Virus record (IMG/VR): IMGVR_UViG_3300001687_001192
Origin: a virus
Taxonomy: Duplodnaviria > Heunggongvirae > Uroviricota > Caudoviricetes
Direction: 5' to 3' (one strand)
Length of the DNA stretch: 64,000 nucleotides
Shown here: in pieces, positions 1 through 37,814 of the stretch
Layout: each line of letters starts with the position of its first letter
Position numbering within the stretch: position 1 is the first letter of the stretch
Position numbers and translations under genes: made by a program
The notes under the pieces: generated by a model
Told to the model about the DNA's origin: nothing
Database searches by the model: none
Seen by the model: the letters and a program-made list of their open reading frames with translations, nothing else

Positions 1-324
1 AGATTAGGAGATCCTTCTCTATGTGGGCGTTGGGTAGGATCTGCGCTTCGAGAACTCGAACCTACTGGCAAAATAACGGAGTTGCCAGAACTGGTTACTT
101 GTAAGACGTGTCTGAAGTATATGGGTGAGTCTACTTCAAACGATCTTCTACATGTTATTGAATACTTTAAGAAGCAAAGCGACTCTTTCGATGTAGTACC
201 TGTCGGTGGTGAAGTAGGAGCACTTAAAATAGTCACTGTTGAGGACAATATTGACAACCTTAGAGTGTTAGTAGATTTATTATTAGAGAGAGCACCTGGT
301 TTCTTAAAGCCACCAAAGGAATGA
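1..324 (+). CDS. hypothetical protein, 5'-partial (open to window start); paralog of 8324..8791 and 14533..14922 (VTCKTC ... LVITTVPxDPDxL ... LVLERG motifs)
   Basis: ORF track 82..324 has no in-frame stop back to nt 1; shared motifs with two other ORFs in window. Confidence 0.5.
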   Translation, partial: RLGDPSLCGRWVGSALRELEPTGKITELPELVTCKTCLKYMGESTSNDLLHVIEYFKKQSDSFDVVPVGGEVGALKIVTVEDNIDNLRVLVDLLLERAPGFLKPPKE

Positions 325-374
325 GTGTTGATAGAATTTGGTCTGAAGGGGTTCGAATCCTCTATCACTCGCCA
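323..374 (+). ncRNA. tRNA-like minihelix: acceptor stem (gagtgtt/atcactc) + T arm (GGTTCGAATCC) + encoded CCA; no anticodon arm
   Basis: T-loop consensus, 6/7 acceptor pairing, 3' gCCA, followed by GAAGGAG RBS and ATG at 394. Confidence 0.4.
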
Positions 375-393
375 ACTTTAGAAGGAGTTTCGC

Positions 394-603
394 ATGAAGT
401 TCTTCGCCGTGCATTACTCTGCTGGTAATAGCATGGACGTTAGGATAAGTCTTCGACTTAACCTGCATACGTCTATTGCTTCTGACATCGGGATTCTCGT
501 TGCCGGTCAAAACAGGTATCTGCTCTGTACGTGCAGCGACCGTGCGGCGAAGTCGCTGTTAGGTTTGTTGCAGCGGCATCCTCAGTTTCACATGGTTTCG
601 TAG
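394..603 (+). CDS. hypothetical protein
   Basis: ORF with GAAGGAG 8 nt upstream. Confidence 0.3.
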   Translation: MKFFAVHYSAGNSMDVRISLRLNLHTSIASDIGILVAGQNRYLLCTCSDRAAKSLLGLLQRHPQFHMVS

Positions 604-619
604 TAACGGAAAGAAGGCA

Positions 620-856
620 ATGAATAGACTGTTTCGTAGAATCGATGACTGGTGTCGAGGTGTAGCTGCTCACATCATTGTGGCCCCCATGAGATTGTTC
701 GATAATGGAGAAGCGAACATTCCTACCGAGATAGCGTTCTTGTGGTTTCTCATGATCGTGTGTCTGCCGGTCACTGGCCCCATATCGCTGCCTTTTTGGG
801 CAGTGGCATATGTGGCTAGCAAGGCTGCCGGGCCGGAAGAAGAGGATGTGGGATGA
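620..856 (+). CDS. hypothetical membrane protein
   Basis: ORF, hydrophobic segment. Confidence 0.35.
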   Translation: MNRLFRRIDDWCRGVAAHIIVAPMRLFDNGEANIPTEIAFLWFLMIVCLPVTGPISLPFWAVAYVASKAAGPEEEDVG

Positions 857-1068
857 CTGTAGAGGGTTTGGTCGGTAGGTTAAAAACACAGAAAGTGTAT
901 GCGGGACAGGTGCAGAGCGGAGATATCCTGGTAGAAGGCACTCCAACATTTATCCAGGCCGTGGCTTTCGTTGCGGATAGGGCGATCTTTGTTTTTGAGG
1001 ATGGAAGCAGGAGAGTCTACTGGGACTACGAAATGGTCAGTATTGTCGACCGTGGTTGTTTTAAGTAA
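853..1068 (+). CDS. hypothetical protein
   Basis: ATGA overlap with upstream ORF. Confidence 0.35.
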   Translation: MTVEGLVGRLKTQKVYAGQVQSGDILVEGTPTFIQAVAFVADRAIFVFEDGSRRVYWDYEMVSIVDRGCFK

Positions 1069-1069
1069 C

Positions 1070-1640
1070 GCGGCGTGGCAAGCGGCATGAGCACGGGCTG
1101 CCCACACGGGGTAGGCTACGGGGCCGGACTCCCACGCCGCCATATATAAGGAAACGCGGGGCGGCGGCTCGTTTATCAACAAAAAAACGTCGAGCTTGCA
1201 GCAATTTGGGCCGCCGCCCCGATTTTCCGGGTTTGCTGCCCGAAAAAATTTTCTTACATAGCCGTTAAAACGGTCGAGGGAGTAAAGGCTAAGTCTTGCG
1301 TTATCTAGGCTGATGATACTTCTTCCCGGTTTGCCCCTATGAAGGGTAAGCATGGTTGCTGGGAAGTCTTAGGCCGTGGTAGCGAGGTAGAGCGGTACCG
1401 GAACTAGGCAACGGTTTGGGCGTGTTTCCGGGACATGCAGCGCCGCGTGGGTTCGATTCCTACCTTAGCCTCCAAGTACGTCTAGCAGCCGGTAACGATG
1501 GGATGGTTGTCCGGTTATCGCCAAAGATCAACTCGTTACAATGGTCGGCTCGAGCCGCCGAGTTGTAGGACATCGACTGGGCAGATGGCTGCATAAATCT
1601 ACCCCATGACGTTCAATTTTTCACTTTTAACCAAGGAGGA
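1070..1640 (+). ncRNA. ORF-poor, GC-rich structured intergenic region (several long-range stems, e.g. gcggcgtgg/ccacgccgc and ggggcggcggc/gccgccgcccc); 3' part 1287-1474 ends in T arm + acceptor + encoded CCA
   Basis: no RBS-led ORF over 570 nt; multiple perfect 9-11 bp inverted repeats; gtgggttcgattcctac T arm, cttagcc-t-CCA pairing with ggctaag at 1287. Confidence 0.4.
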
Positions 1641-1643
1641 GAT

Positions 1644-2087
1644 ATGGTAACGGCGTACTACGTCATCTGTGTGCTCGCGTCTGTGTTTGTATACACGGTT
1701 CTCGGGTTGGTCTTCTACTCGCAAATCGTGGGGTGGTGGTGGGAGTTCGAGACGGTCATATCTTCAGCCGGCGCGACCTTTCGGCTGAAAAATCCGGCAG
1801 CAGGAAGCTATTGTGCTGCTGCTGCCATCTTCTGGCCTTTATCGCTGGCGGCGGCAATCGTGTCGCTAGTCATGAAAATCGTGATTCACGGCATCATACG
1901 CATCGCCGACATGACGTTGGGGCGCTTCTGGCGATTGCTCAAACGCTTGTTTAGTTCCATTCTAGGGGCGTTAATTCTGCCGCAAAGAGCCGCCTTCCCT
2001 GACATAATGGGTACATCGTTGGAGCCACTTGAGCCGGCGACCTGCGACATGTGTCGGGAAAAGTTATCCCAGGCCCCGTACCGCTAG
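1644..2087 (+). CDS. hypothetical membrane protein
   Basis: AACCAAGGAGGAGAT-ATG RBS; several hydrophobic helices. Confidence 0.6.
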   Translation: MVTAYYVICVLASVFVYTVLGLVFYSQIVGWWWEFETVISSAGATFRLKNPAAGSYCAAAAIFWPLSLAAAIVSLVMKIVIHGIIRIADMTLGRFWRLLKRLFSSILGALILPQRAAFPDIMGTSLEPLEPATCDMCREKLSQAPYR

Positions 2088-2095
2088 GAGGTCAC

Positions 2096-2323
2096 ATGGC
2101 ACAGCAACACAAGCCACTAGCAGCAGTGGTTGCGCTGCTCGATGATGGAGCGAAGGAAGATAGAATGATCGCCTACTTCCATCATCTCAACAAGACTCGC
2201 CGAACCGCCGAAGTAGTGCAGATATTTGAGGAGTTTTTCCAGGGCAGCGAGCATGTCCTAGAGAACAAGTTCCCGAGTCTGCACGAGCTTCTGCGGAAAC
2301 ATCGCGAGGCAACCCAGACTTAA
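2096..2323 (+). CDS. hypothetical protein
   Basis: in-frame ATG after CTAGGAGG RBS within track ORF 2051..2323. Confidence 0.5.
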   Translation: MAQQHKPLAAVVALLDDGAKEDRMIAYFHHLNKTRRTAEVVQIFEEFFQGSEHVLENKFPSLHELLRKHREATQT

Positions 2324-2324
2324 C

Positions 2325-2392
2325 GAAACCTATCTGCTGGCGGGGCAGGGGCTTTTAGCCTGATGGTGGTTCGAATTCACCAGGCTTTGCCA
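2325..2392 (+). ncRNA. tRNA-like element (acceptor gaaacct/aggcttt, D arm ctgc-tggcggg-gcag, T arm, encoded gCCA) with truncated 11-nt anticodon hairpin ggcttttagcc
   Basis: paralogous to elements at 4278 and 10332; TTCGAAT T-loop; too short (about 65 nt) for canonical tRNA. Confidence 0.5.
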
Positions 2393-2415
2393 GGAGAATA
2401 ACCAAGGAGACTACT

Positions 2416-2838
2416 ATGGCTGTTGATAAAAGAAGGGTTGCAATGCCTGACTGCTGGTCTCCGGTACGGAAGTTGGCCAGCGAGTTGGCAGATGGTTGCC
2501 AGCTTCAGAAGGGTGCCATTAGCTTGAAGCGAGATGGAGATTGCAAGTATACGCTCGCTCTTCGTAGTGGGCAGAAGCCTTTCACTTGTCCAGTGAAAGC
2601 GGTCTTCATGTTCATCTACTACGCCGGTGGCCCCGAGTCTATCGAGGTTATCGAGTACAAGGAACCGGAGCATAATTGGCGGGCTTATATCAACACTAGT
2701 GGGGCGTATGAAGGTGGAGATGATGTTGTCGTTTGCCCCCAGTGTTTGAAGGAGGACCCGTCATTGGAGGCTGATATCTATTGCTCTACCAGAGAGCCTT
2801 GTCTGAAGCATCAAGACCCGGCCAAGAACGGCCGGTAA
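2416..2838 (+). CDS. hypothetical Cys-rich protein
   Basis: AACCAAGGAGACTACT-ATG RBS. Confidence 0.6.
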   Translation: MAVDKRRVAMPDCWSPVRKLASELADGCQLQKGAISLKRDGDCKYTLALRSGQKPFTCPVKAVFMFIYYAGGPESIEVIEYKEPEHNWRAYINTSGAYEGGDDVVVCPQCLKEDPSLEADIYCSTREPCLKHQDPAKNGR

Positions 2839-3124
2839 GATCTCATGCCGCATGGCAGCGTTAACGTTAGGTCTGGATGCGTTGTTGCCATGCGTGAAGT
2901 CGTATAGGTTTGATGAGGACCTTTGGCTTCGGCTACCTCCCTCGCCTAGCGTGCGGTCAGTTTGACGAGGCGGAATAATAATCCAGATCACACTGACGTA
3001 CTATCGTAGTTTAGCGGAAAAGCGACCAAGGCCTACCGCATAACTTCTTAGAGGTGCTTGCGGATTCATAGGTTGGGGTAGACGAGAAGTTCGACTCTTC
3101 TCCGATAGTGCCAAGGAGGTCAAA

Positions 3125-3484
3125 ATGGCAAAGTATCATTATTCCTCTTATTGGGGAACATGGAGCCGTAGGCTCTCAAGTGACCACGAGAGCGGGCCAT
3201 ACGTGGAAGTAAACCTCACTCCAATCAAGGATGCGAACTATGCTTCTAGGTGGGACGATGAGGTAATACCAATCATCATTCGCACTCATTGCACGGCTTC
3301 AACGCCGAGAGACATCGATACCAACATCCTGCCGCTTGCAGTTGGTGAGGACATGGTAAAATTTCTTGGAGTTGAGCTGACCAAGAAGCTGTTGGATTAC
3401 GACTTTCTCGCCGACATCGATCCTGAACTTCTCAGGACCAAGATGACGGGCGGAGGCGTGCCATTCCGCGACTTGGTGAAGTGA
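3125..3484 (+). CDS. hypothetical protein
   Basis: CCAAGGAGGTCAAA-ATG RBS. Confidence 0.6.
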   Translation: MAKYHYSSYWGTWSRRLSSDHESGPYVEVNLTPIKDANYASRWDDEVIPIIIRTHCTASTPRDIDTNILPLAVGEDMVKFLGVELTKKLLDYDFLADIDPELLRTKMTGGGVPFRDLVK

Positions 3485-3516
3485 AGTGCTACACGAGATA
3501 ACCAAGGAGGCCAACA

Positions 3517-3957
3517 ATGCCTTTTAGAGTTGAGGCGAGAGAGAGATACATGAATGGTCGCCTCGTTGTCCAGATTTACGAGGACGACGATGGGCCGTTC
3601 TCCGGAATGCCGTATTGTACGCTGAGCACCAATGTACCTGGAGTGGAGCTGGAAGACGACGAGTTCGTACTGAACCATGACCTTAACGGTCCTTTGTTCG
3701 ACGAACTCAGGACCGAGATCCTGGCGAAGTGGTGTGAGGACACCGGTAAGCGGTGTAGTTACGGGTTCGTTCGCGACCAGCCGATTTGGAGGGTCGCGTT
3801 AGACGATACTAAGGTATCAGCTGATAAACTCAAGGCAGTTCCTTTTCCTGAATGCGGCGGCAAATGTGCAGCCGTCGAATACCTCGGTGTGGGCGAGTGT
3901 GAGGCTGTTTGTCCACATAAGTTTGATGGCAATGGTGATCCTATAGCCGATTTTTAA
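3517..3957 (+). CDS. hypothetical protein
   Basis: AACCAAGGAGGCCAACA-ATG RBS. Confidence 0.6.
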   Translation: MPFRVEARERYMNGRLVVQIYEDDDGPFSGMPYCTLSTNVPGVELEDDEFVLNHDLNGPLFDELRTEILAKWCEDTGKRCSYGFVRDQPIWRVALDDTKVSADKLKAVPFPECGGKCAAVEYLGVGECEAVCPHKFDGNGDPIADF

Positions 3958-4277
3958 AGATAGGTTTACGGTGACAATAGACAGGTAAAAGATCTCGATG
4001 GCAAGACTTGGGGCGTGTGCAACTTTATCACCTGCAAAGCTTGCGACGGCGATGATGTCTTGGACCGCTGGGTTCAGGCCAACGAGGAAGCCCACCAGAG
4101 ATTTTGGTGGCTATTATGATCACGCTAAGGTGACGCAATGAGTAAAGGGACTGAAGATGAGAAAAATCGTTAAGCTTATTCGCAGGCTGTGGTTTTGTGA
4201 TCCACCTCCCTTTGCTCGCTGCGAGATTTGTGGCGAGGACATTGAGGAGTGCAACACAAGAGATCATATGCGTTGAT

Positions 4278-4344
4278 GGGACCTATCTGCTAGTGGAGCA
4301 GGAGTCTTTATGACTCGAGGCTGGTTCGAATCCAGTAGGTTTCA
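4278..4344 (+). ncRNA. tRNA-like element (acceptor gggacct/aggtttc, D arm ctgc-tagtgga-gcag, T arm gctgg-TTCGAAT-ccagt) with short anticodon hairpin gagtc-tttat-gactc
   Basis: paralog of 2325 and 10332 elements; if folded as 4-bp stem the 7-nt loop ctttatg would present anticodon UUA. Confidence 0.5.
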
Positions 4345-4362
4345 CTGACTGAGGAGGATACA

Positions 4363-5133: not shown

Positions 5134-5142
5134 GAGGCTACG

Positions 5143-5304: not shown

Positions 5305-5364
5305 GTTGTTGAGTGCCGCTTGTACTTTAGCGAGTGCAAGCGATACTAAACAAAGGAGGCAGAG

Positions 5365-5631
5365 ATGAAGGTAGCGTTTTGCGACAAGTGTAAGAAGCGG
5401 CTGCCAGGTGAGTTGTGGCATGGCCCACCGTGTCAGTGTCCTGGCAGCGAGAAGATCACCCAGATGTGGGAGAAAATCGGCGAAGCAACACTCGGAATTC
5501 CGGCCAGCGAGGACAACGATCTCACGCCTCTCCAGGGTTTAAGCGTGCTGGCGTACGTGGAGCGGAAGAGGAGAGACCCCGAGGAGTGGTGGAGGGAGCA
5601 GTACCTCATCGCCCAGATCAACAAGATGTGA
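5365..5631 (+). CDS. small zinc-binding protein (CDKC ... CQC)
   Basis: AAACAAAGGAGGCAGAG-ATG RBS. Confidence 0.6.
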   Translation: MKVAFCDKCKKRLPGELWHGPPCQCPGSEKITQMWEKIGEATLGIPASEDNDLTPLQGLSVLAYVERKRRDPEEWWREQYLIAQINKM

Positions 5632-5638
5632 GGTCCAG

Positions 5639-6058
5639 ATGCGAAATAAAGACATTCGTGGTTCAGTTTGCTACGACTGGAGAGACCGGATCGAACTGGT
5701 GATCGACAACGCTGGGCGGTGGCATCTGTGTCGTATTGTCCATATGGACCTCGTGCCAATCGAGGACGTAACGGACAAGCTAGACGAGCTAAACCAGGAG
5801 CGAGTCTCCGTTGCTTGGCAGTACGGCCAGATTGACAATCACATCAAAGCTATGAGGGCTCGCGAGAACTTCCTGGGGTGCCTGAGAGAGCTTGAGGCTG
5901 AAGCCTTCTGGCAGAAGGAGAGACGTAATTTCGGCAATGCTGCCGAGTACCAGAGGCTGGTCAAGAAATACGAGTCCGTCGCGGACGCTGTATGGACACG
6001 AGAGTGGTATGAGGGCTTGGAGATCATGCAATCGGTACTGGCGCGACTAGAGCCGTAG
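5639..6058 (+). CDS. hypothetical protein
   Basis: ORF closely following upstream stop. Confidence 0.5.
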   Translation: MRNKDIRGSVCYDWRDRIELVIDNAGRWHLCRIVHMDLVPIEDVTDKLDELNQERVSVAWQYGQIDNHIKAMRARENFLGCLRELEAEAFWQKERRNFGNAAEYQRLVKKYESVADAVWTREWYEGLEIMQSVLARLEP

Positions 6059-6952: not shown

Positions 6953-7010
6953 TTGTTGAGTGCCTCGTGGGTTCTGAGGAACCCAGGCGGGACCTAACAA
7001 AGGAGGAGAG

Positions 7011-7260: not shown

Positions 7261-7330
7261 GGGGATGTAGCTCAGACGGCAGAGCCCCACGATAACGTGG
7301 AGGGCGTAGGTTCGACTCCTACCATCCCCT
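7261..7330 (+). ncRNA. tRNA-like gene, 70 nt: perfect acceptor (ggggatg/catcccc), canonical D arm (GCTCAGACGGCAGAGC) and T arm (gtagg-TTCGACT-cctac), but anticodon region ccacg-ATAA-cgtgg (4-nt loop)
   Basis: all tRNA arms except anticodon arm are canonical; no encoded CCA. Confidence 0.55.
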
Positions 7331-9122: not shown

Positions 9123-9181
9123 GCCGCTGAACGTTAAGTGGTAACGTGTCAGTAATATCGGTTCGATTCCGAACGGCGGCC
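9123..9181 (+). ncRNA. tRNA-like element, 59 nt: acceptor (gccgctg/cggcggc), D arm (cgtt-aagtggt-aacg), T arm (TTCGATT); anticodon arm absent
   Basis: only 9 nt between D and T arms; followed by AAAGGAGG RBS. Confidence 0.5.
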
Positions 9182-10331: not shown

Positions 10332-10400
10332 GGAACCTATCCGACAATGGGTCGGGGCATATAGAGTATGCTGAAGAGGGTTCAACTCCCTCAGGTTTCG
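10332..10400 (+). ncRNA. tRNA-like element (acceptor ggaacct/aggtttc, D arm ccga-caatggg-tcgg, T arm gaggg-TTCAACT-ccctc) with 15-nt anticodon hairpin gcata-tagag-tatgc
   Basis: third member of the gaaacct/aggtttc acceptor family; followed by GCTAAGGAGGAAACA-ATG. Confidence 0.5.
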
Positions 10401-12301: not shown

Positions 12302-12378
12302 AGGTTGTGTCGACATGGCAGTCGGATGTCGCGGGCTAGAGTTCTCTGGTCTAATGGGTTCAACTCCCATACAACCTA
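12302..12378 (+). ncRNA. tRNA-like element, 77 nt: acceptor aggttgt/acaacct, enlarged D-like hairpin cgacat-ggcagtcgg-atgtcg, hairpin taga(g)-ttctctg-(g)tcta, T arm atggg-TTCAACT-cccat
   Basis: T-loop consensus and 7-bp acceptor; non-canonical spacing of arms. Confidence 0.45.
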
Positions 12379-15870: not shown

Positions 15871-17943
15871 ATGGATGCTTTCAAACATCAGAGAATACTA
15901 GTCGAGAATGGCTTGGTTTTCATCCCTTCGGACGGAGTGGAGTGCCCTACTTACCAGCAGATCGTGACCATCTTGGGTAACATTACGTACTACGGCTTTA
16001 TGCTGTCGGAGTCTGCGTACGCCAAGATGACGAAGATGAGCGCGGCTTCTTTAAATGAGTGGTGGAGTTCGCTGGAGTTGGCTCTCAAAGTCATCACTGG
16101 AGACGACAAGAAGATGGCAGACTTCGTGGTCTATAAGAACTTCCCTAAGGAAGTACTTGATATGACGGAGGCTGAGTACTGGTTGAAACAGATCCTGATG
16201 TACTGGGGGTTTCCGAACGAGCATTTTACAGAGGAGCCGGAGGAGCGAAAGACTGCAATCGAGAAGCTACCGGTCAAGGTGCTTCAGCTCGCCAATGAGA
16301 CGAGCCTCGCCGGCATCTTCGAGTCTCTGCTGCGGTCTTCTGTACGTTGGACAGACAGGCAATGGGAGGTGGTTCAGGAACTCCTGGACGGATTCGACAC
16401 AGTCGATGTCTCTTCCATTTCCTTTAAGGAAAACATGGTACTATTGGCGCAACAGCTAATAGAGAATGGACACGACGTTTCTGTGAAGACGGCTACGGAT
16501 GTACTACGCCTAGCCGTTGGTATGTCGGACGGCGACGTCTCTCTGCGCACAAACAGCAAGTTGCGTCGGTTCTGTCGTCCGGAGAGACGCTTCCTCCTGT
16601 CCCTTCTTGAGAACTGCAAGAACCTTGAGGAAGATGTAGCCAGGAGGCGCGGACAATTCAAACGATTATTCTTCGAGCTTCATCCAGGTGATTACAAGGG
16701 TCGTTTCAAGAGGGTGTCGGTCGCCTACGATAAGCTATATCGCGGGGCGAAGATCAGGACGTTCAACTCCGAAATCGAACGTCTGCTCGCAGACTGCAAC
16801 CCTAGTGCCTTAGACTTGCTGAAGACCAGGCCAGGCGAGTTCCTGCGTCGTCTGCGGGTCGCCGTGTCGAAGTATGGGCTCGGTGCCGTAGGAGCTTTCA
16901 GCGAGGTTCTGCCGCGTTTGACTGTGCACCAGCTCCTCAAAATCGAGAGGCACCTGCGGACGGCCAACGGCCGCCAATACAGGACGTTTCCCCCAAAGGG
17001 AAATTGGACGAAGTTGCAGGTAGTTAAAGCCAAGGACCGTTGGGATGCTGGATGGGCTAGTCAGCTCGCCGACATAGTAGCCGTAGAGATCAAAGAGCGA
17101 GTCAGCGAGGTCATTCCTAGTGTTAAGATATCTCTTGACGTCGATAAGGTCAAACTACAGACAAGCGACAGTGATTTGACTCCTTATGGGAGAGGAACTG
17201 TCTTCGACATTCCCGAGAACATTACTTTCTTGCGTAGCGCTTCTTATTGGAAAACTGGTGGCGGTTTTGGCCGTAACATCTGGTACGACAACGGTTGGAA
17301 TTTCTTCGATTCCGAATGGAAGCCGACCGGCGCATGCTGCTGGACAAACGTGAACTGTCACGGCGGTGCTGCCATCTTCTCGGGTGACCCCACGAATTCT
17401 AAAGATCTCGAAGGTAGGGCTTGTCAAATGATCGACTTGTACATCAACAAACTAGGGAAATGCGGGGTACGGTATGCCGTGTGGAATATCCTCTGCTACT
17501 CTCGTCGTTCATTTGACCAGTCGGAAGAAGTTCACGCTGCGCTCCAGTGGGGGGAATATCCGCAGGAGAACAGGCTTTTCGAACCTTCAAGGTCCGTCTT
17601 TTCGTTTCCAGTGCGCGGTGCAAACATGACAAAGTATATCGCGTACATTGACGTGCAAGAGAGAAAGTTGATATATATCGACGCCAACCTCTATGGTACC
17701 GTTGCCACTGCTTTCCGCAACCAAAAGACGTTAGCAGCAAAGATGCCAGCATTTGTGGAATATCTCGATTCTCTTCCCTCTGTCTTCGACCTGTTCAAGG
17801 GCGTGTCAGTCTCGGAGGACGGTGTACCAATACTCTACGATGACACTGGTGAAAAGGTTCAGGGTGATGCGTACGTGTTTATGCAACGGAACAGAGACAA
17901 TGAGTTCCGCCAGCTAGATATCAACGCTTTGTTAAAGAAGTAA
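15871..17943 (+). CDS. large hypothetical protein (690 aa)
   Basis: longest ORF in window, no recognised motif. Confidence 0.7.
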   Translation: MDAFKHQRILVENGLVFIPSDGVECPTYQQIVTILGNITYYGFMLSESAYAKMTKMSAASLNEWWSSLELALKVITGDDKKMADFVVYKNFPKEVLDMTEAEYWLKQILMYWGFPNEHFTEEPEERKTAIEKLPVKVLQLANETSLAGIFESLLRSSVRWTDRQWEVVQELLDGFDTVDVSSISFKENMVLLAQQLIENGHDVSVKTATDVLRLAVGMSDGDVSLRTNSKLRRFCRPERRFLLSLLENCKNLEEDVARRRGQFKRLFFELHPGDYKGRFKRVSVAYDKLYRGAKIRTFNSEIERLLADCNPSALDLLKTRPGEFLRRLRVAVSKYGLGAVGAFSEVLPRLTVHQLLKIERHLRTANGRQYRTFPPKGNWTKLQVVKAKDRWDAGWASQLADIVAVEIKERVSEVIPSVKISLDVDKVKLQTSDSDLTPYGRGTVFDIPENITFLRSASYWKTGGGFGRNIWYDNGWNFFDSEWKPTGACCWTNVNCHGGAAIFSGDPTNSKDLEGRACQMIDLYINKLGKCGVRYAVWNILCYSRRSFDQSEEVHAALQWGEYPQENRLFEPSRSVFSFPVRGANMTKYIAYIDVQERKLIYIDANLYGTVATAFRNQKTLAAKMPAFVEYLDSLPSVFDLFKGVSVSEDGVPILYDDTGEKVQGDAYVFMQRNRDNEFRQLDINALLKK

Positions 17944-29928: not shown

Positions 29929-29935
29929 AAGTGTT

Positions 29936-30019
29936 GGCCGGGTGGCGTAACTGGTAGCCGCCTCAGACTTAAAATCTGATGTCCGTAAGGGCGTGCGGGT
30001 TCGAATCCCGCCCCGGCTA
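29936..30019 (+). tRNA. tRNA-Leu (anticodon UAA), type II with long variable arm, no encoded CCA
   Basis: acceptor ggccggg/cccggct, D arm ggcg-taactggtagc-cgcc, anticodon stem tcaga/tctga with loop CTTAAAA (U33, A37), 15-nt variable arm, T arm gcggg-TTCGAAT-cccgc. Confidence 0.8.
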
Positions 30020-30037
30020 CTAATTGGGGAGAACGTA

Positions 30038-30358
30038 ATGAACATAACTTGGGTGCTTGAGGCAGAGGCTTTTAGAGACAACGAGGAAGCGCTGAAGGAA
30101 GCCGCGAAAGCAGCTGGCCACCGGGTTGTAGCGTGGAACGATGAATGGATAGAAACACGGAAGTGGCCAGTGCTAGAAGGCGAGCGGGTAGTATTTCACG
30201 GTAGCCTAGAGAACGCTTCTTACATCCATCGGAATATATCTTGGGAGCCTGGGGCATTTTGCAGAAGCCGAGTCCCCAGTGCTGTTGTCATGGGTGTCAC
30301 GAGGGAAGATGGCCATAAAATATTAGGAGGTAGGATATGTTTCAGATCGTCTTGTTAG
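30038..30358 (+). CDS. hypothetical protein
   Basis: GGGGAGAACGTA-ATG; track start 29993 lies inside tRNA. Confidence 0.5.
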   Translation: MNITWVLEAEAFRDNEEALKEAAKAAGHRVVAWNDEWIETRKWPVLEGERVVFHGSLENASYIHRNISWEPGAFCRSRVPSAVVMGVTREDGHKILGGRICFRSSC

Positions 30359-32272: not shown

Positions 32273-32282
32273 GGTGTGAGAG

Positions 32283-32540: not shown

Positions 32541-32553
32541 AAGGAAGAGCAAG

Positions 32554-32790: not shown

Positions 32791-32813
32791 AACTTTCACG
32801 AAGGAGTCTAGAG

Positions 32814-33374
32814 ATGATCGCAGATTTCGACATGCTTGAATGGCATGAGACTTCGCAGCTGGTTGATGAGGAGACGGCGGAGGCCGTTAAGCACCTTCAC
32901 GTTGCTAGCTATATGTTTCGGCTAACTGGTAGTAGATACTTTGGGTCGTGGCAACGCCGATCAGACTTCGACTTTTTTACTGAGAATACTGCTTCCATCA
33001 ACTCATATCTCAAGTCAAAAGGTTTTGTAATAGTACTTTCAGGCGACTATACCGATGCTCTCACGGACCTGGTATACAGAAAGGGGAAGGTCCATGTGCA
33101 GATCATTAACAATGTTCTGTTAAAGCAAAGGATTCAAAAAGCTATCAATGACAGCGGCGTTATCGGAACGATAATGAGAGGTAGTGTAAAAGAGATAACG
33201 CGAAAATTATGGGATCTTGGGGTAAAACTGGCGGATCCTATAGATGTCGCGAAACCGCAGGTTACCGTAGAGTCGAAATTTTGTTCGTGTCCTGGAGAGA
33301 AGGTTCGGACGACGGTAAACGGCAGGGATTTTTTCAACTATTGCAGAGGGTGCAAGAAAGAGTGCAAACCGTAG
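32814..33374 (+). CDS. hypothetical protein with C-terminal zinc ribbon (CSCPGEKV...FFNYCRGCKKECKP)
   Basis: CGAAGGAGTCTAGAG-ATG inside track ORF 32778..33374. Confidence 0.6.
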   Translation: MIADFDMLEWHETSQLVDEETAEAVKHLHVASYMFRLTGSRYFGSWQRRSDFDFFTENTASINSYLKSKGFVIVLSGDYTDALTDLVYRKGKVHVQIINNVLLKQRIQKAINDSGVIGTIMRGSVKEITRKLWDLGVKLADPIDVAKPQVTVESKFCSCPGEKVRTTVNGRDFFNYCRGCKKECKP

Positions 33375-33385
33375 AGGAGGTAGAG

Positions 33386-33685
33386 ATGCGAAACATTATA
33401 TTTGCTACGCTGATCGTACTGTCAGCAGCTATTTTCGGCTGTATGGAAACGTACGACCACGGGATGTGCGAACATGCGTGTCAAAGGAAATTCGGGTACA
33501 AAATTGGAGAATACTGTAGCGTTACGGGGCGTTGCATTGATTTTGACTGGGGTGCTGACAGTCGTCGTCTGAATAGGGTGTGTAAATGTAGGTGCATTGG
33601 AGGGCCTATTGGATCCGTATTCATAAGTGAGGAGGGGAAACGGATTATGATAACGGCCGAGGCAGAGGTTGAAGGCGGCAAATAA
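33386..33685 (+). CDS. secreted/lipo Cys-rich protein (8 Cys)
   Basis: GTAGAGGAGGTAGAG-ATG; signal peptide. Confidence 0.5.
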   Translation: MRNIIFATLIVLSAAIFGCMETYDHGMCEHACQRKFGYKIGEYCSVTGRCIDFDWGADSRRLNRVCKCRCIGGPIGSVFISEEGKRIMITAEAEVEGGK

Positions 33686-33723
33686 TTATCGGACGGCATT
33701 CACACTTGGGCTAAGGAGTAAAT

Positions 33724-33945
33724 ATGTTGCCATCGATGTGCGATAAAAGAATGCGCTTAAGCGTTGATCAAATGGCCGAATTAAATGGTTTGGCCGATAA
33801 AGCCAGTAACTTAAGCAGTTTACTAAGGGGAGCCGCGCAATTGGGAGAAAAGGGACATCCGGTAATAGTAGCAGAGATAGATGCCGCTTTCAAAGAATTA
33901 AAGCAGATTGTAGATCGAGTTAGGAGATTTATAGAATGTCTGTAA
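33724..33945 (+). CDS. hypothetical protein
   Basis: CTAAGGAGTAAAT-ATG. Confidence 0.5.
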   Translation: MLPSMCDKRMRLSVDQMAELNGLADKASNLSSLLRGAAQLGEKGHPVIVAEIDAAFKELKQIVDRVRRFIECL

Positions 33946-34139
33946 AACCAGAAGTTTCCAAGCCTGTTTCAGGTAGTAATAACATGTTGTCGAAGCAACT
34001 ATCTTGTGGTGCCGTGGTGGAAATTCATAGAACCGATAATGGTATTAAAGTCTTGACATTTGCGTTTGATTCTAAAGGCAACAAAATATGCATAGGACGC
34101 AGGGTATTCACCGAGAAAGACCTCACGGGTGGCCAATGA
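33936..34139 (+). CDS. hypothetical protein
   Basis: overlap. Confidence 0.4.
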   Translation: MSVKPEVSKPVSGSNNMLSKQLSCGAVVEIHRTDNGIKVLTFAFDSKGNKICIGRRVFTEKDLTGGQ

Positions 34140-34657
34140 AATCCTTGGCGTTCGTGCTCACATTTTTCGTGGCGTCTACAAGTTTTGCTGACCAAAGACT
34201 GGCGCGATTGTGTAGTGATACTGCACTAGCTCTTAACGGACACGCGCTCAGTTTATCGCTCATTGTTACAGATGTTGCCTTGGAGTTGACCGCGCTTCCA
34301 AAAGCCAAGGTAGCTACTGCTCGGGCGGCAATTGAGGCGGTAAATGTTGCGGGTGCTATCGTATTCGAGGAGCTTAGTTTCCTCGGAGTACATATTATTC
34401 TTAGAAATGGTGGGGCTAAGATCAAAGATAAGGTTATAATAATTTTCCTTCTAAATTCGATTAATGATCTGGAGAGTTATTATACATTGGCTAGAATGCT
34501 ACCGGGTAAGGTAATTAGGGATAAGAAGAAGAGGGATACTATTCTTAAAAAGATGGATAAGAATTATGCTATATTTGGCTCTATAGCTGACGCCGCGACA
34601 AAGATGATTAGAAAGAGGCTTTTAAAGGTTCCAAAGGGCAGGAAAGAAAAGATATGA
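34136..34657 (+). CDS. secreted protein (signal peptide MKSLAFVLTFFVASTSFA); Lys/Ile-rich C-terminal half overlaps a diverged copy of the 17944-18540 repeat unit
   Basis: signal peptide; 34404-34500 contains GGGGCT..TTCCTTCTAAATTCGA..GAATGCTACC. Confidence 0.4.
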   Translation: MKSLAFVLTFFVASTSFADQRLARLCSDTALALNGHALSLSLIVTDVALELTALPKAKVATARAAIEAVNVAGAIVFEELSFLGVHIILRNGGAKIKDKVIIIFLLNSINDLESYYTLARMLPGKVIRDKKKRDTILKKMDKNYAIFGSIADAATKMIRKRLLKVPKGRKEKI

Positions 34658-34878
34658 GATTTCAGCCGTTTAGTGTAGAATCGATCTTGATGGGTGGTCC
34701 AGTTGATTGGGAAGCTGCTGCCAGTTCTTTATCAAGAATGGGTATAGATATTCCCATAGAAAGTCTTAAAGAGTTTTGTAGAGAAAGAGGGATTGAAACG
34801 GGGCGGCAGTTTGCTGACTCGGTGTATGAAATTATCATGTACTTTACTGCTGGGGGATCTATTGGGCAAAGGAGTTAA
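34654..34878 (+). CDS. hypothetical protein
   Basis: ATGA overlap. Confidence 0.45.
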   Translation: MRFQPFSVESILMGGPVDWEAAASSLSRMGIDIPIESLKEFCRERGIETGRQFADSVYEIIMYFTAGGSIGQRS

Positions 34879-34979
34879 AGGACTGTGGATATGTGCTTGG
34901 GGTGTAGTACATCTAGTGGTTATTCACACCATCCGTTCTGGCATCGACCGCTTGATTAGCAAGTATTTATGGAGGTAAA

Positions 34980-35381
34980 ATGCGTGGCGAACTGTTATTG
35001 TGGATGTCTGTCTCTATATTAGTGATAATGGCTATTTGGCACATTATCACAGAGTTTATTAATTACATAAATGGAAAAAGGCGACTTTCCTTCGTCTTTC
35101 TTAAGGGTTCTTTCATAGTGTGTGCTATAATTCTTCTAATAATGTCTTATGGGAAGAGGATGTCAGAGGAGTCGATTAACGTTGGTGGAAGCGGCACTGT
35201 AGAGACAGTAACACAACGGAGAACAGACGAAGTGGCAAAGAAAAGAGTTGAAGAGGAGAAAGGAAAGATAAAGGTCGACAAGGAAAAGCAGAGGGAGGAT
35301 GAGGAAGAGGCGATAGAATCTATGGATGAATTCCGTAAGAGAATTATGAACAGAAGGAAAATCGAAGGAGAACAACAATGA
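34980..35381 (+). CDS. membrane protein with charged coiled-coil tail
   Basis: GGAGGTAAA-ATG. Confidence 0.55.
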   Translation: MRGELLLWMSVSILVIMAIWHIITEFINYINGKRRLSFVFLKGSFIVCAIILLIMSYGKRMSEESINVGGSGTVETVTQRRTDEVAKKRVEEEKGKIKVDKEKQREDEEEAIESMDEFRKRIMNRRKIEGEQQ

Positions 35382-36313
35382 AGAAATATCTAATCGTTCT
35401 TGGTCTTATTTCGCTGCTCGGTGTGTTTGGATGTAACGATACGGTTCCTCCTGGTCACGTTGGAATGGTGCGGACGCCTCAGGGATTAACAGGTGACGTA
35501 TTGGCGCCTGGATTACATACTTGTTGGGGCAGAGACAAGATGCAGTTGGTAGAAGTAAGTGATAAAACTTACAAACAGAAGATGAATGTTCTCTGTACGG
35601 ATGAACTAAATTTTGGTTTCTCTGTACACATCCTAGCATCTGTAAATAAATCTAAGAAGGAACTCATTAAGAGTGTATTCGAGAATGTTACGCCTTCAGA
35701 AGGTGGGGTTGTAACAGCGAGGCAGCTCTACGATATGTATGTGCGCCCGGTGGTCGACCAAGAGGCAAGGAAGGCTGTAGGTAAGTACGCCACTAGTCAA
35801 CTGGTAAAAAACAGGCTCAAGGTAATTCAAGAGACAGGAGCCTCGATTCAGGAGGCTTTGGGTGATAGTATTATGAACATTAAACGGATTTCCGTTACTA
35901 ACTTGGATTTTCCGGACTCTATCACTAAGGCCCAGGAACTTAAAGCTACACGCCGTGTCGAAATCGAGACCGAGAAGGCGGAACAAGAAAAACGCATTGT
36001 GATCGCTAAGAATAAGATCAAGACTGCTCAGCTCGAGTATAAGCGTAGGTTAATTGAGGCGGCTATGATCGCCGACGCCAATAAAATTATTGGCTCCTCG
36101 TTGTCTCAGGAATATTTGGCGTGGTGGCAGCTTAAAGTCTTCAGCAAGGCGGCGTTGGGTAACAATAACTGGGGTTTTATTCCCTATACCGATCATACCA
36201 ACCAGAAATTTGGTATTAAAAAGCTAGCCATTGATGCTGCATTGCGTAAACGTATTGAGCAGGCGCAATTAGCTGAGGCAGAGCAAAGAACTAAATACAA
36301 GGGGAAGAAATAA
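35378..36313 (+). CDS. SPFH/band-7 (HflK/C-like) domain lipoprotein
   Basis: lipobox LLGVFGC; VPPGHVGMVRT ... band-7 like core; ATGA overlap. Confidence 0.55.
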   Translation: MKKYLIVLGLISLLGVFGCNDTVPPGHVGMVRTPQGLTGDVLAPGLHTCWGRDKMQLVEVSDKTYKQKMNVLCTDELNFGFSVHILASVNKSKKELIKSVFENVTPSEGGVVTARQLYDMYVRPVVDQEARKAVGKYATSQLVKNRLKVIQETGASIQEALGDSIMNIKRISVTNLDFPDSITKAQELKATRRVEIETEKAEQEKRIVIAKNKIKTAQLEYKRRLIEAAMIADANKIIGSSLSQEYLAWWQLKVFSKAALGNNNWGFIPYTDHTNQKFGIKKLAIDAALRKRIEQAQLAEAEQRTKYKGKK

Positions 36314-36526
36314 ATGGATAAGAGGTCGACTTTAGCAGAATTGAAGGAGGAAGCGGACGAACTTTATGCTGCTATAGCAGAGTTAGAGAATAGGGCTCGA
36401 AGTTTAAAGGAGAAGCTCTCCCTGCGTGGTATTGACTCGTTTCGGGCCGAGGAAACAGTGTTGAGTCTAGTCGAGGCACAAGGCCGTCTCAGTAGACAAC
36501 TGAGCTACTTGGAGCTACCTGATTGA
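36314..36526 (+). CDS. small coiled-coil protein
   Basis: TAAATGG overlap. Confidence 0.5.
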   Translation: MDKRSTLAELKEEADELYAAIAELENRARSLKEKLSLRGIDSFRAEETVLSLVEAQGRLSRQLSYLELPD

Positions 36527-36544
36527 GAAATATGGAGGAGAAGT

Positions 36545-36799
36545 ATGAGAACGTTTAAGATAATTGCTCTTGTGATAGGCATCTTGGCCGTCATATTTCT
36601 GGCGGGTTATCTCGGTATTTGGGTGATGTTAGTTGGCGGCATTGTTCAGATTATCGAAGCTGCAGGTGTGTCTCCCGTTGATGCTCTCGGAGTAGCTATT
36701 GGAATCGTCCGTGTATTGGGCGCTGGATTCGTTGGCCTACTCATATTTTGGCTGGGGACATTAGTCATTGGGGGAATAGCCATATTTTCTAATAGGTAG
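36545..36799 (+). CDS. membrane protein (Gly-zipper-like)
   Basis: ATGGAGGAGAAGT-ATG. Confidence 0.5.
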   Translation: MRTFKIIALVIGILAVIFLAGYLGIWVMLVGGIVQIIEAAGVSPVDALGVAIGIVRVLGAGFVGLLIFWLGTLVIGGIAIFSNR

Positions 36800-36806
36800 G
36801 TTGCAC

Positions 36807-37292
36807 ATGGCATCTTTGAGCGATGTACTTTCACTTGCAAGGAAGGTTAGGAACGCGTTCGAAGAGATTGGTGAAAACAAAAGACTGGGCGGATTCTGTG
36901 CGCGGGCTTCTATACAATTACATTTAGCAGCTGAGCGAATGGGTATAAGAGGAGTAGATATATGTATAGGGCAAGGTCATGTCTATTGCATGTACAATGA
37001 CACAGTGATAGACGTTACCGCTACACAATTTGGTATAGAGGACGAGGTGTTTACGTCAAAGATACTAGACCTGAAAGAGACTGTTAATAAAGATGGCGTC
37101 CGAAGACACTCTAGCTGGGAACAATTAAATAGGTTCCATGATCTTGCAGATGGGTATAAGGTTGCCAAGCGTATAGGCAGTTGGGCGAACTGGTGGGTCT
37201 GTGACAAACAAACAATTGCAGACGACATGCACTATGTGCTTAAGCATACAGGTGAGCTGATTACTGACAGCATTGACGAGGCTACAGTGTAG
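36807..37292 (+). CDS. paralog pair member 1 (VRNAFEEIG ... GVDICIGQGHVYCMYNDTVIDVTATQFG)
   Basis: tandem paralog of 37309..37728. Confidence 0.55.
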   Translation: MASLSDVLSLARKVRNAFEEIGENKRLGGFCARASIQLHLAAERMGIRGVDICIGQGHVYCMYNDTVIDVTATQFGIEDEVFTSKILDLKETVNKDGVRRHSSWEQLNRFHDLADGYKVAKRIGSWANWWVCDKQTIADDMHYVLKHTGELITDSIDEATV

Positions 37293-37308
37293 TCATACGG
37301 TTAGCGAC

Positions 37309-37728
37309 ATGGTTCCATACGATCTTATTAAACTGGCAGAAAAAGTAAGAGCAGCATTTGAGGAGATAGGCTCCTGTAATTGCGACCTCGCAGGGTGGTG
37401 TGGTACAGCCTCATCTCACCTTGCCGAGGCTGCTAAAAGGTTGGGAATTCACGGCGTGGATATCTGCGTCGGCAGTGGCCACGTCTATTGTATGTATTCT
37501 GATAATATTATAGATATTACTGCTACGCAATTTGGAGTGCAAGATAAGGTTTTTATAGTGTCGTTGTTTGATTTGAAGGAAGAGCTTGCCAAGCGCCAAT
37601 TAGACAATTGGTTTTACTGGAAACAGACTTCTAGGAACATCGCACCGTATCCATTAAAATCAGAGCATCTGCAAGTAGTGCAGAGGCATACTGGTGAGCT
37701 TGCTGAGCAAAAGGAGGCAACAGTATAA
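37309..37728 (+). CDS. paralog pair member 2 (VRAAFEEIG ... GVDICVGSGHVYCMYSDNIIDITATQFG)
   Basis: in-frame ATG aligned with paralog 1 start. Confidence 0.55.
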   Translation: MVPYDLIKLAEKVRAAFEEIGSCNCDLAGWCGTASSHLAEAAKRLGIHGVDICVGSGHVYCMYSDNIIDITATQFGVQDKVFIVSLFDLKEELAKRQLDNWFYWKQTSRNIAPYPLKSEHLQVVQRHTGELAEQKEATV

Positions 37729-37733
37729 TCGAA

Positions 37734-37755
37734 GGCCGCAGTCTATGCTGCGGCC
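37734..37755 (+). terminator. perfect 8-bp GC hairpin ggccgcag-tctatg-ctgcggcc after stop codon
   Basis: stem-loop right after TAA of 37309..37728; no clear U-tract. Confidence 0.4.
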
Positions 37756-37760
37756 CACCT

Positions 37761-37814
37761 GCGTCCGTAGCTCATGGGGAGCAGTTGTATTGGGTTCGAT
37801 TCCCTACGGATGCG
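37761..37814 (+). ncRNA. tRNA-like element, 54 nt: acceptor gcgtccg/cggatgc, D arm gctc-atggg-gagc, T arm TTCGATT; anticodon arm absent
   Basis: T-loop consensus; followed by GCTAGGAGGTTGTA-ATG. Confidence 0.5.

Follow-up and report, generated by a model that had tools for sequence, protein, structure and literature searches.

Anticodon-less tRNA-like elements in the gene gaps of an XacN1-like jumbo phage

Introduction

What are the elements, shaped like transfer RNAs (tRNAs) and lacking a functional anticodon arm, that occupy gaps between genes in virus record IMGVR_UViG_3300001687_001192? Phage tRNA genes are usually viewed as decoders, kept for codon supply or to replace tRNAs cut by host defences. 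In a 64,000-nucleotide (nt) stretch of this virus (Caudoviricetes), which we call the window, a first inspection of the sequence had picked out a dispersed family of tRNA-like elements, each placed immediately 5' of the ribosome-binding site (RBS) of a gene, and had set them apart from the phage's normal tRNAs as a distinct class. Our analysis shows that the elements are real and that they descend from tRNA genes of the phage itself, and it identifies structural constraint in some of them. More tentatively, we propose that they are kept as sites at which long messenger RNAs (mRNAs) would be cut.

Results

A class of tRNA-shaped elements that do not decode

The T-arm motif GGTTCRANTCC occurs 14 times on the plus strand of the window and 0 times on the minus strand, whereas first-order Markov simulations give on average 0.125 and never more than 2. 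Counting the variant T arms at 2372 and 3088, there are 16 T-arm elements, all of them on the gene strand and in intergenic gaps, a strand bias of 16 to 0. One is a canonical tRNA. The others, about 15 in number, keep the acceptor stem and the T arm, and usually the D arm, and none of them is able to decode. In the list, bits are scores from a covariance search described below, z is a folding z-score and bp stands for base pairs.

323..374, plus strand: minihelix without D or anticodon arm; acceptor 6/7, T arm AGGGG-TTCGAAT-CCTCT, G-CCA end; T arm 11.3 bits
1287..1474, plus strand: long tRNA-like RNA, 184 nt plus T-CCA; acceptor GGCTAAG/CTTAGCC (7/7); canonical T arm, 14 bits
2325..2392, plus strand: member of the GRRACCT family (named for its acceptor); 5-bp D stem, T arm, G-CCA; 15.9 bits (match at 2348)
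3000..3113, plus strand: 110-nt tRNA-like RNA; acceptor ACTATCG/CGATAGT (7/7); T arm 9.8 bits; z -2.6
4278..4344, plus strand: GRRACCT-family member; D arm, 5-bp central stem with 5-nt loop, T arm; 24.2 bits; z -2.8
7261..7330, plus strand: near-perfect tRNA with a 4-nt anticodon loop, ATAA; 58.4 bits, the top score in the window
9123..9181, plus strand: element without anticodon arm; acceptor 7/7, D arm, 11 nt, T arm, tail C-CTA; 23.8 bits
10332..10400, plus strand: GRRACCT-family member; central stem of 5-7 bp and loop of 3-7 nt, depending on the reading; tail G-CTA; 22.8 bits; z -3.95
12302..12378, plus strand: tetraloop element; acceptor 7/7, D-like arm, 8-bp stem with tetraloop, T arm; 17 bits; z -2.9
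18540..18602, plus strand: tRNA-Lys-derived element; acceptor, D arm and T arm intact; 36.4 bits
19049..19253, plus strand: long noncoding RNA; T arm, acceptor 3' strand and A-CCA at 19226-19253; 12.5 bits
21745..21787, plus strand: minihelix without D or anticodon arm; 6-bp acceptor, 9-nt bulge, 7-bp T arm; 14.5 bits; z -3.5 (0/200 shuffles)
29936..30019, plus strand: tRNA-Leu(UAA), the only canonical tRNA of the window; tail A-CTA; 41.5 bits
37761..37814, plus strand: element without anticodon arm; acceptor 7/7 with G3:U70, D arm, 7 nt, T arm, G-CTA; 34.4 bits; z -2.5
51221..51316, plus strand: tRNA-like element with a structured 27-nt 'anticodon loop'; called by ARAGORN as Arg-tct with an insert; 23 bits
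61986..62061, plus strand: tRNA-Lys(UUU)-like element with one extra anticodon-loop base; 48.7 bits

In every element a 7-nt upstream segment pairs with the 7 nt that follow the T stem, either completely (1287, 3000, 4278, 7261, 9123, 10332, 12302, 18540, 19049 and 37761) or at six of seven positions (323, 2325 and 21745). The T stem is paired at 5/5 throughout except in 9123 and 37761 (4/5), and all 16 elements pass a T-arm test that requires a 5-bp stem and the 7-nt loop GTTCRANNC. A D arm with G18 G19 is seen in 7261, 9123, 18540, 37761, 12302 and the GRRACCT family, and is absent from 323 and 21745; 1287, 3000 and 19049 show no clear one. The canonical anticodon arm (5-bp stem, 7-nt loop, U33, purine at 37) is found in 29936 alone; the remaining 15 fail, having loops of 0-5, 8 or 27 nt, no arm, or a long insert. 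Unconstrained minimum free energy folds give an acceptor, D arm and T arm around a collapsed middle, that is, a cloverleaf without an anticodon loop. Folding z-scores lie between -1.8 and -3.95 for most elements (-2.4 for the canonical Leu tRNA), with thermodynamically weak folds in 323 (-1.0) and 2325 (-0.7).

Standard detectors agree with this picture. ARAGORN calls five genes (7261, 10332, 29936, 51221 and 61987), two of them as 'tRNA-???', among them 7261 with a 2-nt anticodon, and the Rfam tRNA model rises above threshold only at 7261, 29936, 51221 and 61986. We trained a covariance model on 38 canonical tRNAs taken from phage XacN1 and from loci L009, L011, L014, L015 and L018, all described below, and searched with filters off. 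It recovers every site claimed originally, on the plus strand and at 58 down to 10 bits, with one weak match on the minus strand of the window; some matches cover the T arm only (21762, 1446, 347, 3085 and 19203). What is missing from the alignments is always the anticodon loop or arm, and 37761 and 9123 skip 16 model positions. No normal anticodon arm was thus assigned to these loci by any detector, the 'Ser-aga' that ARAGORN reads at 10332 being implausible: the element has no long variable arm, and its paralogues have loops of 3-5 nt. The motif count, the pairing and the covariance matches together establish a recognisable class, to which 1287-1474, 3000-3113, 51221 and 61986 are additions.

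The elements differ in what stands at the site of the anticodon arm. A full tRNA body with a short linker is found in 9123, 37761 and 18540, the last of which keeps both halves of the anticodon stem and has lost the 7-nt loop between them (0 nt). The distance from D to T arm, first put at 6-14 nt, is roughly that, at 11 nt in 9123, 16 in 18540 and 7 in 37761. A body with a mini-hairpin, its loop of 3-5 nt, is found in 7261, 12302, 2325, 4278 and 10332. The hairpin of 7261 is correctly read as ccacg-ATAA-cgtgg; four of seven loop bases are left, consistent with a 3-nt deletion from CTNATAA. In 2325 the centre is a 4-bp hairpin with a 3-nt loop. Far from being rearranged, as had been thought, 12302 has a D arm followed by an 8-bp stem closed by a tetraloop.

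A third grade carries a long insert at the site of the anticodon arm, in the topology of transfer-messenger RNA (tmRNA): 1287-1474, with a structured insert of about 150 nt; 3000-3113, with a long central hairpin and a 6-bp T arm; 19049-19253, whose 5' boundary is ambiguous, the acceptor partner lying at 19049 (7/7) or 19191 (6/7); and 51221, where the covariance alignment has 23 extra bases and the loop could be an intron or an insert. Bare acceptor-T minihelices make up the fourth grade. Two of the three originally claimed, 323 and 21745, are such; the one at 19226 is the 3' end of the longer RNA 19049-19253. Outside the range first claimed, 51221 belongs to the same phenomenon; 61986, also beyond it, has a loop, TCTTTTAA, of 8 nt, or else a 6-bp stem with a 6-nt loop.

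Two further structures adjoin the long RNAs. The noncoding stretch 1069-1290, upstream of 1287, holds two long GC-rich hairpins (cgcggcgtggca...tcccacgccgc; gcggggcggcggc...gccgccgccccg). Directly after the ACCA of 19049-19253, positions 19255-19330 form a long perfect hairpin (ACCTTTACAATAGAGGATTGAGGC...GCCTCAATTCTTTATTGTAAAGGT) followed by ATTTT; its resemblance to a terminator suggests that 19049-19253 is a stand-alone gene. An Rfam 'mir-240' match to this hairpin is spurious.

At their 3' ends, 14 of the 16 elements have C after the discriminator. CCA is encoded in five, namely the four reported at the outset (323, 1287, 2325 and 19049) and 3000, and seven others end in N-CTA. Canonical tRNAs of the same phage show the same mix of tails (ACTA in Leu-UAA and, from L018, ACCA in Ile and ACTA in Glu).

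The proximity to an RBS also holds, with an RBS and start codon 10-43 nt downstream of 11 elements. Next start codons lie at 394 (for 323), 2416 (2325), 4363 (4278), 9202 (9123), 37828 (37761) and probably 12393 (12302), and the G-CCA end of 3000 overlaps the RBS of the gene at 3125. The upstream stop codon is equally near, in most cases from a 2-nt overlap to 43 nt before the element: 323 overlaps its stop codon (322-324), 2325 starts 1 nt past one, and 7261, 10332 and 21745 begin 8-12 nt after theirs.

The elements derive from a tRNA island

The window is part of an XacN1-like jumbo phage of about 461 kilobases (kb). A protein of 690 amino acids (aa) encoded at 15871-17943, which served as our marker, recurs with identical sequence on the 460,921-bp ENA metagenome contig ERZ27279932:k141_1082626, where the window lies about 9 kb from one contig end. 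Among annotated phages the closest is Xanthomonas jumbo phage XacN1, with 46% identity across 99% of the marker protein. Relatives of the marker within IMG/VR show 46-47% identity only, and a megablast search against 50,697 phage records gave no DNA-level relative of window positions 1-24000.

The terminal repeat of XacN1 has 131 small open reading frames (ORFs), interspersed with 26 canonical tRNAs, 2 suppressors and 1 pseudogene (PMC5852040). Two other relatives have the same layout, L009 (marker protein 66% identical) with 10 canonical tRNAs in 22 kb and L011 (65%) with 15 in 15 kb. In all three, canonical tRNAs stand in a stop-tRNA-RBS arrangement; in the GenBank record of XacN1, for example, a coding sequence ends at 29934, tRNA-Ser occupies 29948-30037 and the next coding sequence starts at 30045. 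The canonical tRNAs of XacN1 and L009 lie 7-30 nt before the next gene. The closeness of the window's elements to an RBS is therefore not special to them.

A direct correspondence comes from L014, whose marker protein is 76% identical. There the marker gene is followed by a repeat region of the window type and then by a canonical tRNA-Lys(UUU), of which 18540 is the positional orthologue; both stand behind the same CTTTCCNCAA..ATT flank. Because 18540 matches the position of this tRNA, at least 18540 is a derived tRNA gene, and this orthology, together with the tRNAs that relatives have in gaps of the same kind, implies that the stop-element-RBS placement was inherited from a compact tRNA island. 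The canonical tRNA-Leu(UAA) at 29936 is homologous to that of L009. The next 8.2 kb of the same phage upstream of the window (L018) carry canonical Lys, Ile, Glu and Val tRNAs and more odd elements. We conclude that the elements began as tRNA genes in the phage's own tRNA island and have since lost the anticodon loop or arm. The original prediction had argued for a distinct class from the presence of canonical tRNAs in the window; there is just the one, Leu-UAA, and the separation does not hold, since relatives' canonical tRNAs fill gaps of the same kind and 18540 is orthologous to one of them.

Some features near these tRNAs deserve mention. Between the 690-aa gene and 18540 (17944-18540; 3384-3846 in L014, where they are conserved) lie three repeat units of about 213 nt, each with a promoter-like site, TTCAGA-17/18-TATAAT, and a block, GAGGCCATNNNNTTCCTTCCTTCTA, that on the minus strand reads as an RBS and then ATGGCC. 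L018 contains a tmRNA (5535-5884, Rfam 165 bits) about 2.3 kb upstream of window position 1, within a noncoding stretch of about 950 nt that has three further T-arm motifs (L018 5170, 5202 and 5410), and, near this tmRNA and the canonical tRNAs, an odd tRNA-like element of 97 nt (L018 3569-3665).

Structural constraint in the GRRACCT family and in an element of L014 and L015

The GRRACCT family has seven copies in three phages: five in this phage (2325, 4278, 10332 and two in L018), one in L017 (a 301-kb IMG/VR contig) and one in L020. The window trio are true paralogues, as first supposed. Across the seven copies the acceptor GRRACCT/AGGYTTY is almost invariant. We parsed the stems by register, a MAFFT alignment being unusable in the variable central region; D stem and T stem are each paired in 35 of 35 cells, with up to five pair types per position and several double compensatory changes. 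The central hairpin is not constant: its stem measures 3-9 bp and its loop 3-9 nt, and in L018:1975 it has a 7-nt loop, ATAAGGA, on a 7-bp stem. The pair G3:U70 occurs only in 37761 (with G73) and in three of the seven GRRACCT copies. A relaxed form of the GRRACCT pattern found 1 real member among 29 matches in IMG/VR, and all nine matches of a strict form in JGI metagenomes were judged chance.

Two other identities for the family were considered. The proteins that flank 2325, 4278 and 10332 are unrelated to one another, which rules out the trio as 5' untranslated regions of a duplicated gene family. The compact core, G73 and acceptor resemble those of tRNA-Pyl; the copies are nevertheless neither tRNA-Pyl nor tRNA-Sec, as they have no CUA or UCA anticodon and a canonical T loop, and they score 22 bits with the Rfam tRNA-Sec model against a threshold of 47.

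A second case comes from L014 (about 1190-1285) and L015 (about 2600-2690), which carry orthologous non-canonical elements just upstream of the marker gene. Read directly from the two sequences, the acceptor shows compensatory changes (G-C to A-T, T-A to C-G) and the T stem a C-G to T-A change. This element has a class-II-like D arm, and about 50 nt that include a CTTTGGTACCAAAG hairpin replace the anticodon arm; ARAGORN does not call it, and it has no counterpart in the window.

These data lead us to conclude that at least one family is under structural constraint, and they argue against the elements being plain decay products. For most window elements no orthologue was found, and the searches gave no close relative of this phage. 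Logan assemblies made independently from this phage do not differ (100% identity) and so offer no population variation, and a search of JGI metagenomes anchored on the 306-aa protein downstream of 7261 gave no relative.

The same architecture in other phages and in bacteria

We asked how far the architecture extends by searching for TAGCTC-N4-9-GAGCA-N3-16-GGTTCGANTCC, a canonical D arm with a T arm within 3-16 nt, leaving the acceptor free. This spacing excludes normal tRNAs, and the census of IMG/VR is a lower bound because it rests on a single narrow pattern. Among the at least 122 matches listed, 76 have 7/7 acceptor pairs, for which the chance rate is about 0.1%, and 15 have 6/7. The resulting at least 91 elements, 81 of these 91 with a 5/5 T stem, represent at least 61 distinct sequences and at least 32 clusters at 80% identity. 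Among these listed elements, 58 nt is the commonest length, 64 have A at N73, and CCA is mostly not encoded. The Rfam tRNA model gives the IMG/VR elements 41-55 bits; the anticodon-arm-less elements at IMG/VR loci L049-L168 are 53-64 nt long.

In two Lactobacillus phages, LBR48 (GU967410.1, about 20008-20065) and Lb (MG020111.1), a 58-nt element stands directly after an ArpU-like late activator, and GenBank has no feature there. In two families the element is about 96-97% identical against 36-46% for the flanks, a contrast inflated by the regular expression that selected the elements. Gene neighbourhoods were compared for eight clusters. In representatives of seven, a head or packaging gene comes next, at a distance of 12-82 nt: the terminase small subunit for three clusters (L124 and L137 in one, L065, L091), and elsewhere the terminase large subunit (L120), portal (L054) or scaffold (L136). 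Many elements stand 12-43 nt before a gene for a terminase subunit, small or large. In one cluster the following gene encodes a transposase.

On one-genome-per-species bacterial contigs, 15 of the at least 111 matches listed have a 7/7 acceptor, about half of them from Levilactobacillus (the LBR48/Lb family). Other matches are ordinary tRNAs caught via their anticodon arm, or a tandem-array structure of Bacteroidota. In these arrays (L211, L187, L199 and L265; Chitinophagaceae, Flavobacteriia) each unit runs from a hairpin through TA, a D arm, about 12 nt and a T arm to a second hairpin. Sequence following a T arm base-pairs with that preceding the D arm of the next unit, which links anticodon-less tRNA-like units into chains.

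The full texts that we searched, which mostly do not extend to subscription journals, describe no gene-encoded anticodon-less tRNA-like elements of phages; the sole match for 'anticodon-less' concerns tRNAs trimmed after Schlafen cleavage. It is possible, though we would not count on it, that anticodon-arm-less tRNA bodies (53-64 nt, made up of acceptor, D arm, a 3-8-nt linker, variable loop and T arm) are a widespread, unannotated class of phage RNA with a dedicated function. This would be either regulated processing by RNase P and RNase Z, fixing where downstream mRNAs start, or that of a tRNA mimic, perhaps aminoacylated, which binds a particular host or phage protein. Equally tentative is the thought that such a class might sit in the leader of a terminase or late operon in small phages and have replaced most of the tRNA island here.

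Discussion

A proposed role in segmenting polycistronic RNA

The reading that we favour, with confidence not quite reaching the even mark, is that these tRNA-derived modules are kept as substrates for end maturation, which would segment polycistronic mRNA. The elements would be co-transcribed with the flanking small ORFs in long polycistronic RNAs; each would be cut at its 5' end by host RNase P and trimmed at its 3' end by RNase Z, or by RNase E with exonucleases, and a phage CCA-adding enzyme would complete the CCA on tRNAs and tRNA-like elements. The mRNA would in this way be cut just before the next RBS, and a non-decoding tRNA-shaped RNA of 45-75 nt would be freed. That cleavage happens, and that the cut and not the freed RNA is the target of selection, are both inferences.

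The CCA-adding enzyme, which the original prediction had recognised, is indeed encoded in the window, together with other RNA-repair genes.

41650..43005, plus strand: CCA-adding enzyme with HD domain
54536..55210, plus strand: Tpt1/KptA RNA 2'-phosphotransferase, part of the RNA-repair gene set
57151..58197, plus strand: RNA ligase (PHA02142 OB fold and RNA_ligase domain), part of the RNA-repair gene set

These genes point to tRNA repair of the heal-and-seal type, in which a 2'-phosphate is left at the junction. Also encoded are a histidine phosphatase, CinA and NADAR, so that RNA-repair and NAD-related genes occupy 41650-43005, 44984-45649, 47042-47650, 54536-55210, 57151-58197 and 23259-23738; a gene for an HNH endonuclease (48645-49280) lies amid the RNA-repair genes. 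Nearly all genes of the window are on the plus strand, and most are small and of unknown function; one encodes a Band-7 protein.

Several observations are consistent with processing. Sigma-70-like promoters (18 against 16.6 expected) and intrinsic terminators (31 against 34.1) are not enriched, the elements show no evident signals of either type of their own, and no conserved promoter or leader motif was found before the elements beyond the CTTTCCNCAA..ATT flank common to 18540 and its orthologue. With no excess of either signal, and with elements and genes co-oriented, any maturation must cut polycistronic RNA before the next RBS. The parts retained are an acceptor-T helix of about 12 bp, N73 and mostly C74, and usually the elbow of T loop and D loop. 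Minihelices built of acceptor and T arm are substrates for bacterial RNase P, RNase Z and CCA-adding enzymes, all of which touch the elbow and not the anticodon arm; C74 and C75 of RCCA base-pair with the P15 loop in the RNA of bacterial RNase P, and CCA is an anti-determinant for RNase Z. Punctuation by RNase P and RNase Z and service as CCA-enzyme substrates, two of the roles first suggested, would thus both fit the anatomy of the elements.

Two other gaps contain a different structure. At 5305-5364 and 6953-7010, the only two copies, the gaps share TTGTTGAGTGCC, a GC-rich hairpin and then ..ACYAAACAAAGGAGG; each gap is one long imperfect hairpin (-23 and -24 kcal/mol) ending at the RBS, which, judging from the predicted folds, may be an intercistronic processing hairpin of the RNase III type.

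Several points weigh against the processing proposal. Only about 13 of some 130 gene junctions carry an element and most genes have none, so the elements are not how genes of the region are expressed in general. Were RNase P to cut cleanly where 323 overlaps the upstream stop codon, a non-stop mRNA would result. The lesions are heterogeneous (loop deletion, mini-hairpins, long inserts, D-arm loss) and have the look of a decay series. The elements were found through intact T arms, an ascertainment bias by which relics with broken T arms would be missed. Finally, the D arm, the variable loop and the near-invariant GRRACCT acceptor exceed what a cleavage signal needs, and such excess retention points to recognition of the released RNA by a specific partner.

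If the elements are matured, phages would use host tRNA-processing enzymes for mRNA processing, a counterpart of mitochondrial tRNA punctuation; alternatively, tRNA mimics would be made. Either outcome would alter the annotation and interpretation of phage 'pseudo-tRNAs'. The occurrence of the architecture in other phages ties a peculiarity of this window into a broader phenomenon that is unannotated across phages. The processing proposal predicts defined RNA ends at +1 and at N73/CCA.

Alternative explanations

The most serious competitor, doubtful in our judgement, is that the elements make trans-acting tRNA mimics, excision being merely the route by which the selected RNA is produced. As a sponge or adaptor it might engage a protein with affinity for the tRNA elbow or acceptor, be that EF-Tu, an aminoacyl-tRNA synthetase, a modification enzyme or a host defence effector whose targets are acceptor or CCA ends; or the RNA might carry an aminoacyl group off the ribosome. 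The full core of D-arm GG, variable loop and T loop in 7261, 9123, 18540, 37761, the GRRACCT family and the 58-nt IMG/VR elements surpasses the minimal needs of an RNase P substrate and would be explained by this. A near-invariant GRRACCT acceptor above covarying D and T stems is what sequence-specific recognition of the acceptor would produce. The RNA ligase, Tpt1 and HD-domain CCA-adding enzyme amount to a tRNA-repair kit, which suggests a tRNA-directed conflict with the host, and solitary, highly conserved elements with mosaic flanks in temperate phages of about 40 kb also suit a mimic. However, the minihelices 323 and 21745 have no core, and a stoichiometric decoy must compete with some 10^5 cellular tRNAs. 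G3:U70, the alanine identity, is limited to 37761 and the three GRRACCT copies. The best-known tRNA-directed defences, the anticodon nucleases, require the anticodon loop; because that loop is what they recognise and is the very part missing here, the role as an anticodon-nuclease decoy suggested originally is unlikely.

That the elements are simply neutral relics, tRNA pseudogenes of a decaying island whose top halves look intact through recent deletions and a T-arm-based search, is in our view unlikely as a general account, though individual elements such as 7261, 323 and 21745 may be relics. The canonical orthologue of 18540 in L014 favours it, as does 7261, a perfect tRNA minus 3 nt of loop. 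So do the varied lesions, which in some elements include the D arm, the presence nearby, in this very phage, of a tmRNA and of canonical tRNAs for Lys, Ile, Glu, Val and Leu, and the outcome of the orthologue searches, which found none for most elements and so leave constraint measured in few. Yet all 15 of 15 keep a paired acceptor and T arm, the lesion always abolishes decoding, and 14 of the 16 retain C74. The full-model search of the window with filters off revealed no relic combining an intact anticodon arm with a broken T arm. Pairing is still complete in the GRRACCT paralogues despite their deep divergence, and the architecture is conserved, amid mosaic flanks, in at least 32 unrelated phage clusters.

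It is very improbable that some elements decode through unusual loops, the candidates being 10332 (a 7-nt loop, ATAGAGT, on a 5-bp stem), 4278 (CTTTATG, anticodon UUA) and 61986 (8 nt). ARAGORN does give 10332 as Ser-aga and 61987 a 2-nt anticodon, L018:1975 carries a 7-nt loop and 61986 scores 48.7 bits; however, the paralogues of 10332 have loops of 3-5 nt with no consistent anticodon, 10332 itself has no long variable arm of the kind that bacterial tRNA-Ser needs, and 9123, 18540, 37761, 323 and 21745 have no loop at all. A role at the DNA level, as integration or recombination sites, pac- or cos-associated sequences or homing-endonuclease targets, is hardly credible: tRNA genes are frequent integration targets (PMC9897764), the small-phage elements adjoin terminase genes, where pac sites lie, and the window holds an HNH endonuclease gene, but integration leaves 3' fragments rather than both acceptor strands minus the middle, what is conserved is RNA pairing (G-U tolerated, compensatory changes) and the bases of tRNA tertiary contacts, and the strand bias is absolute.

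Comparison with known systems

Several known RNAs resemble these elements in part. The tRNA-like domain of tmRNA shares the acceptor, the T arm, a reduced D region and an insert in place of the anticodon arm, the topology of 1287, 3000 and 19049; it differs in that the short window elements have no insert and most elements lack G3:U70, which with A73 gives tmRNA its alanine identity; in 37761 the pair stands with G73. In the window, ARAGORN finds no tmRNA and Rfam only a weak beta_tmRNA fragment at 1287, 13.9 bits against a threshold of 84. We rejected 1287, 3000 and 19049 as tmRNAs: they have no tag frame and no model match, and the likeness is one of topology only.

Cloverleaf-like RNAs with a reduced or non-functional anticodon arm, excised by RNase P and RNase Z, given CCA and not aminoacylated, are known in mascRNA/MALAT1, MEN-beta and the MHV68 vtRNAs. 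These are eukaryotic or herpesviral, transcribed by RNA polymerase II or III, present once or a few times per transcript, and evolutionarily unrelated to the phage elements.

The bacterial Y RNA YrlA, also present in phages, mimics tRNA through a T arm and a D arm and lacks an anticodon (PMC4201824). It is circularly permuted: a loop closes the acceptor-like stem, and both ends of the RNA belong to a Ro60-binding stem, whereas the acceptor here is open and ends in N-CCA or N-CTA; the window has no Rfam match to YrlA, and no Ro60 gene was seen. Integration-derived tRNA fragments (PMC9897764) are likewise tRNA-derived and non-decoding, and covariance models score them as tRNAs or pseudo-tRNAs. 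Those fragments are one-sided, being the 3' part, and lie beside mobile elements; the phage elements keep both ends and lack only the middle, and many phages conserve their architecture.

The closest relatives by descent are the tRNA islands of XacN1-like phages. They share with the window their lineage, a nearby Band-7 gene, tRNA-sized genes in short gaps and a CCA-adding enzyme. In XacN1, L009 and L011, however, nearly all of these genes are canonical decoders, in contrast to 1 of 16 in the window.

For the processing proposal, the closest functional analogy is with plant mitochondrial t-elements and mitochondrial tRNA punctuation. The t-elements are non-decoding tRNA-like structures, and RNase P and RNase Z make mRNA ends there (Forner et al. 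2007, PMC1920247). They are organellar, their processing has been mapped, and they are usually poorer tRNA mimics, whereas in this bacteriophage we only infer processing. In the structural half of the t-element definition the two agree: the phage elements are non-decoding tRNA-like folds beside coding sequence, intergenic and co-oriented with the genes.

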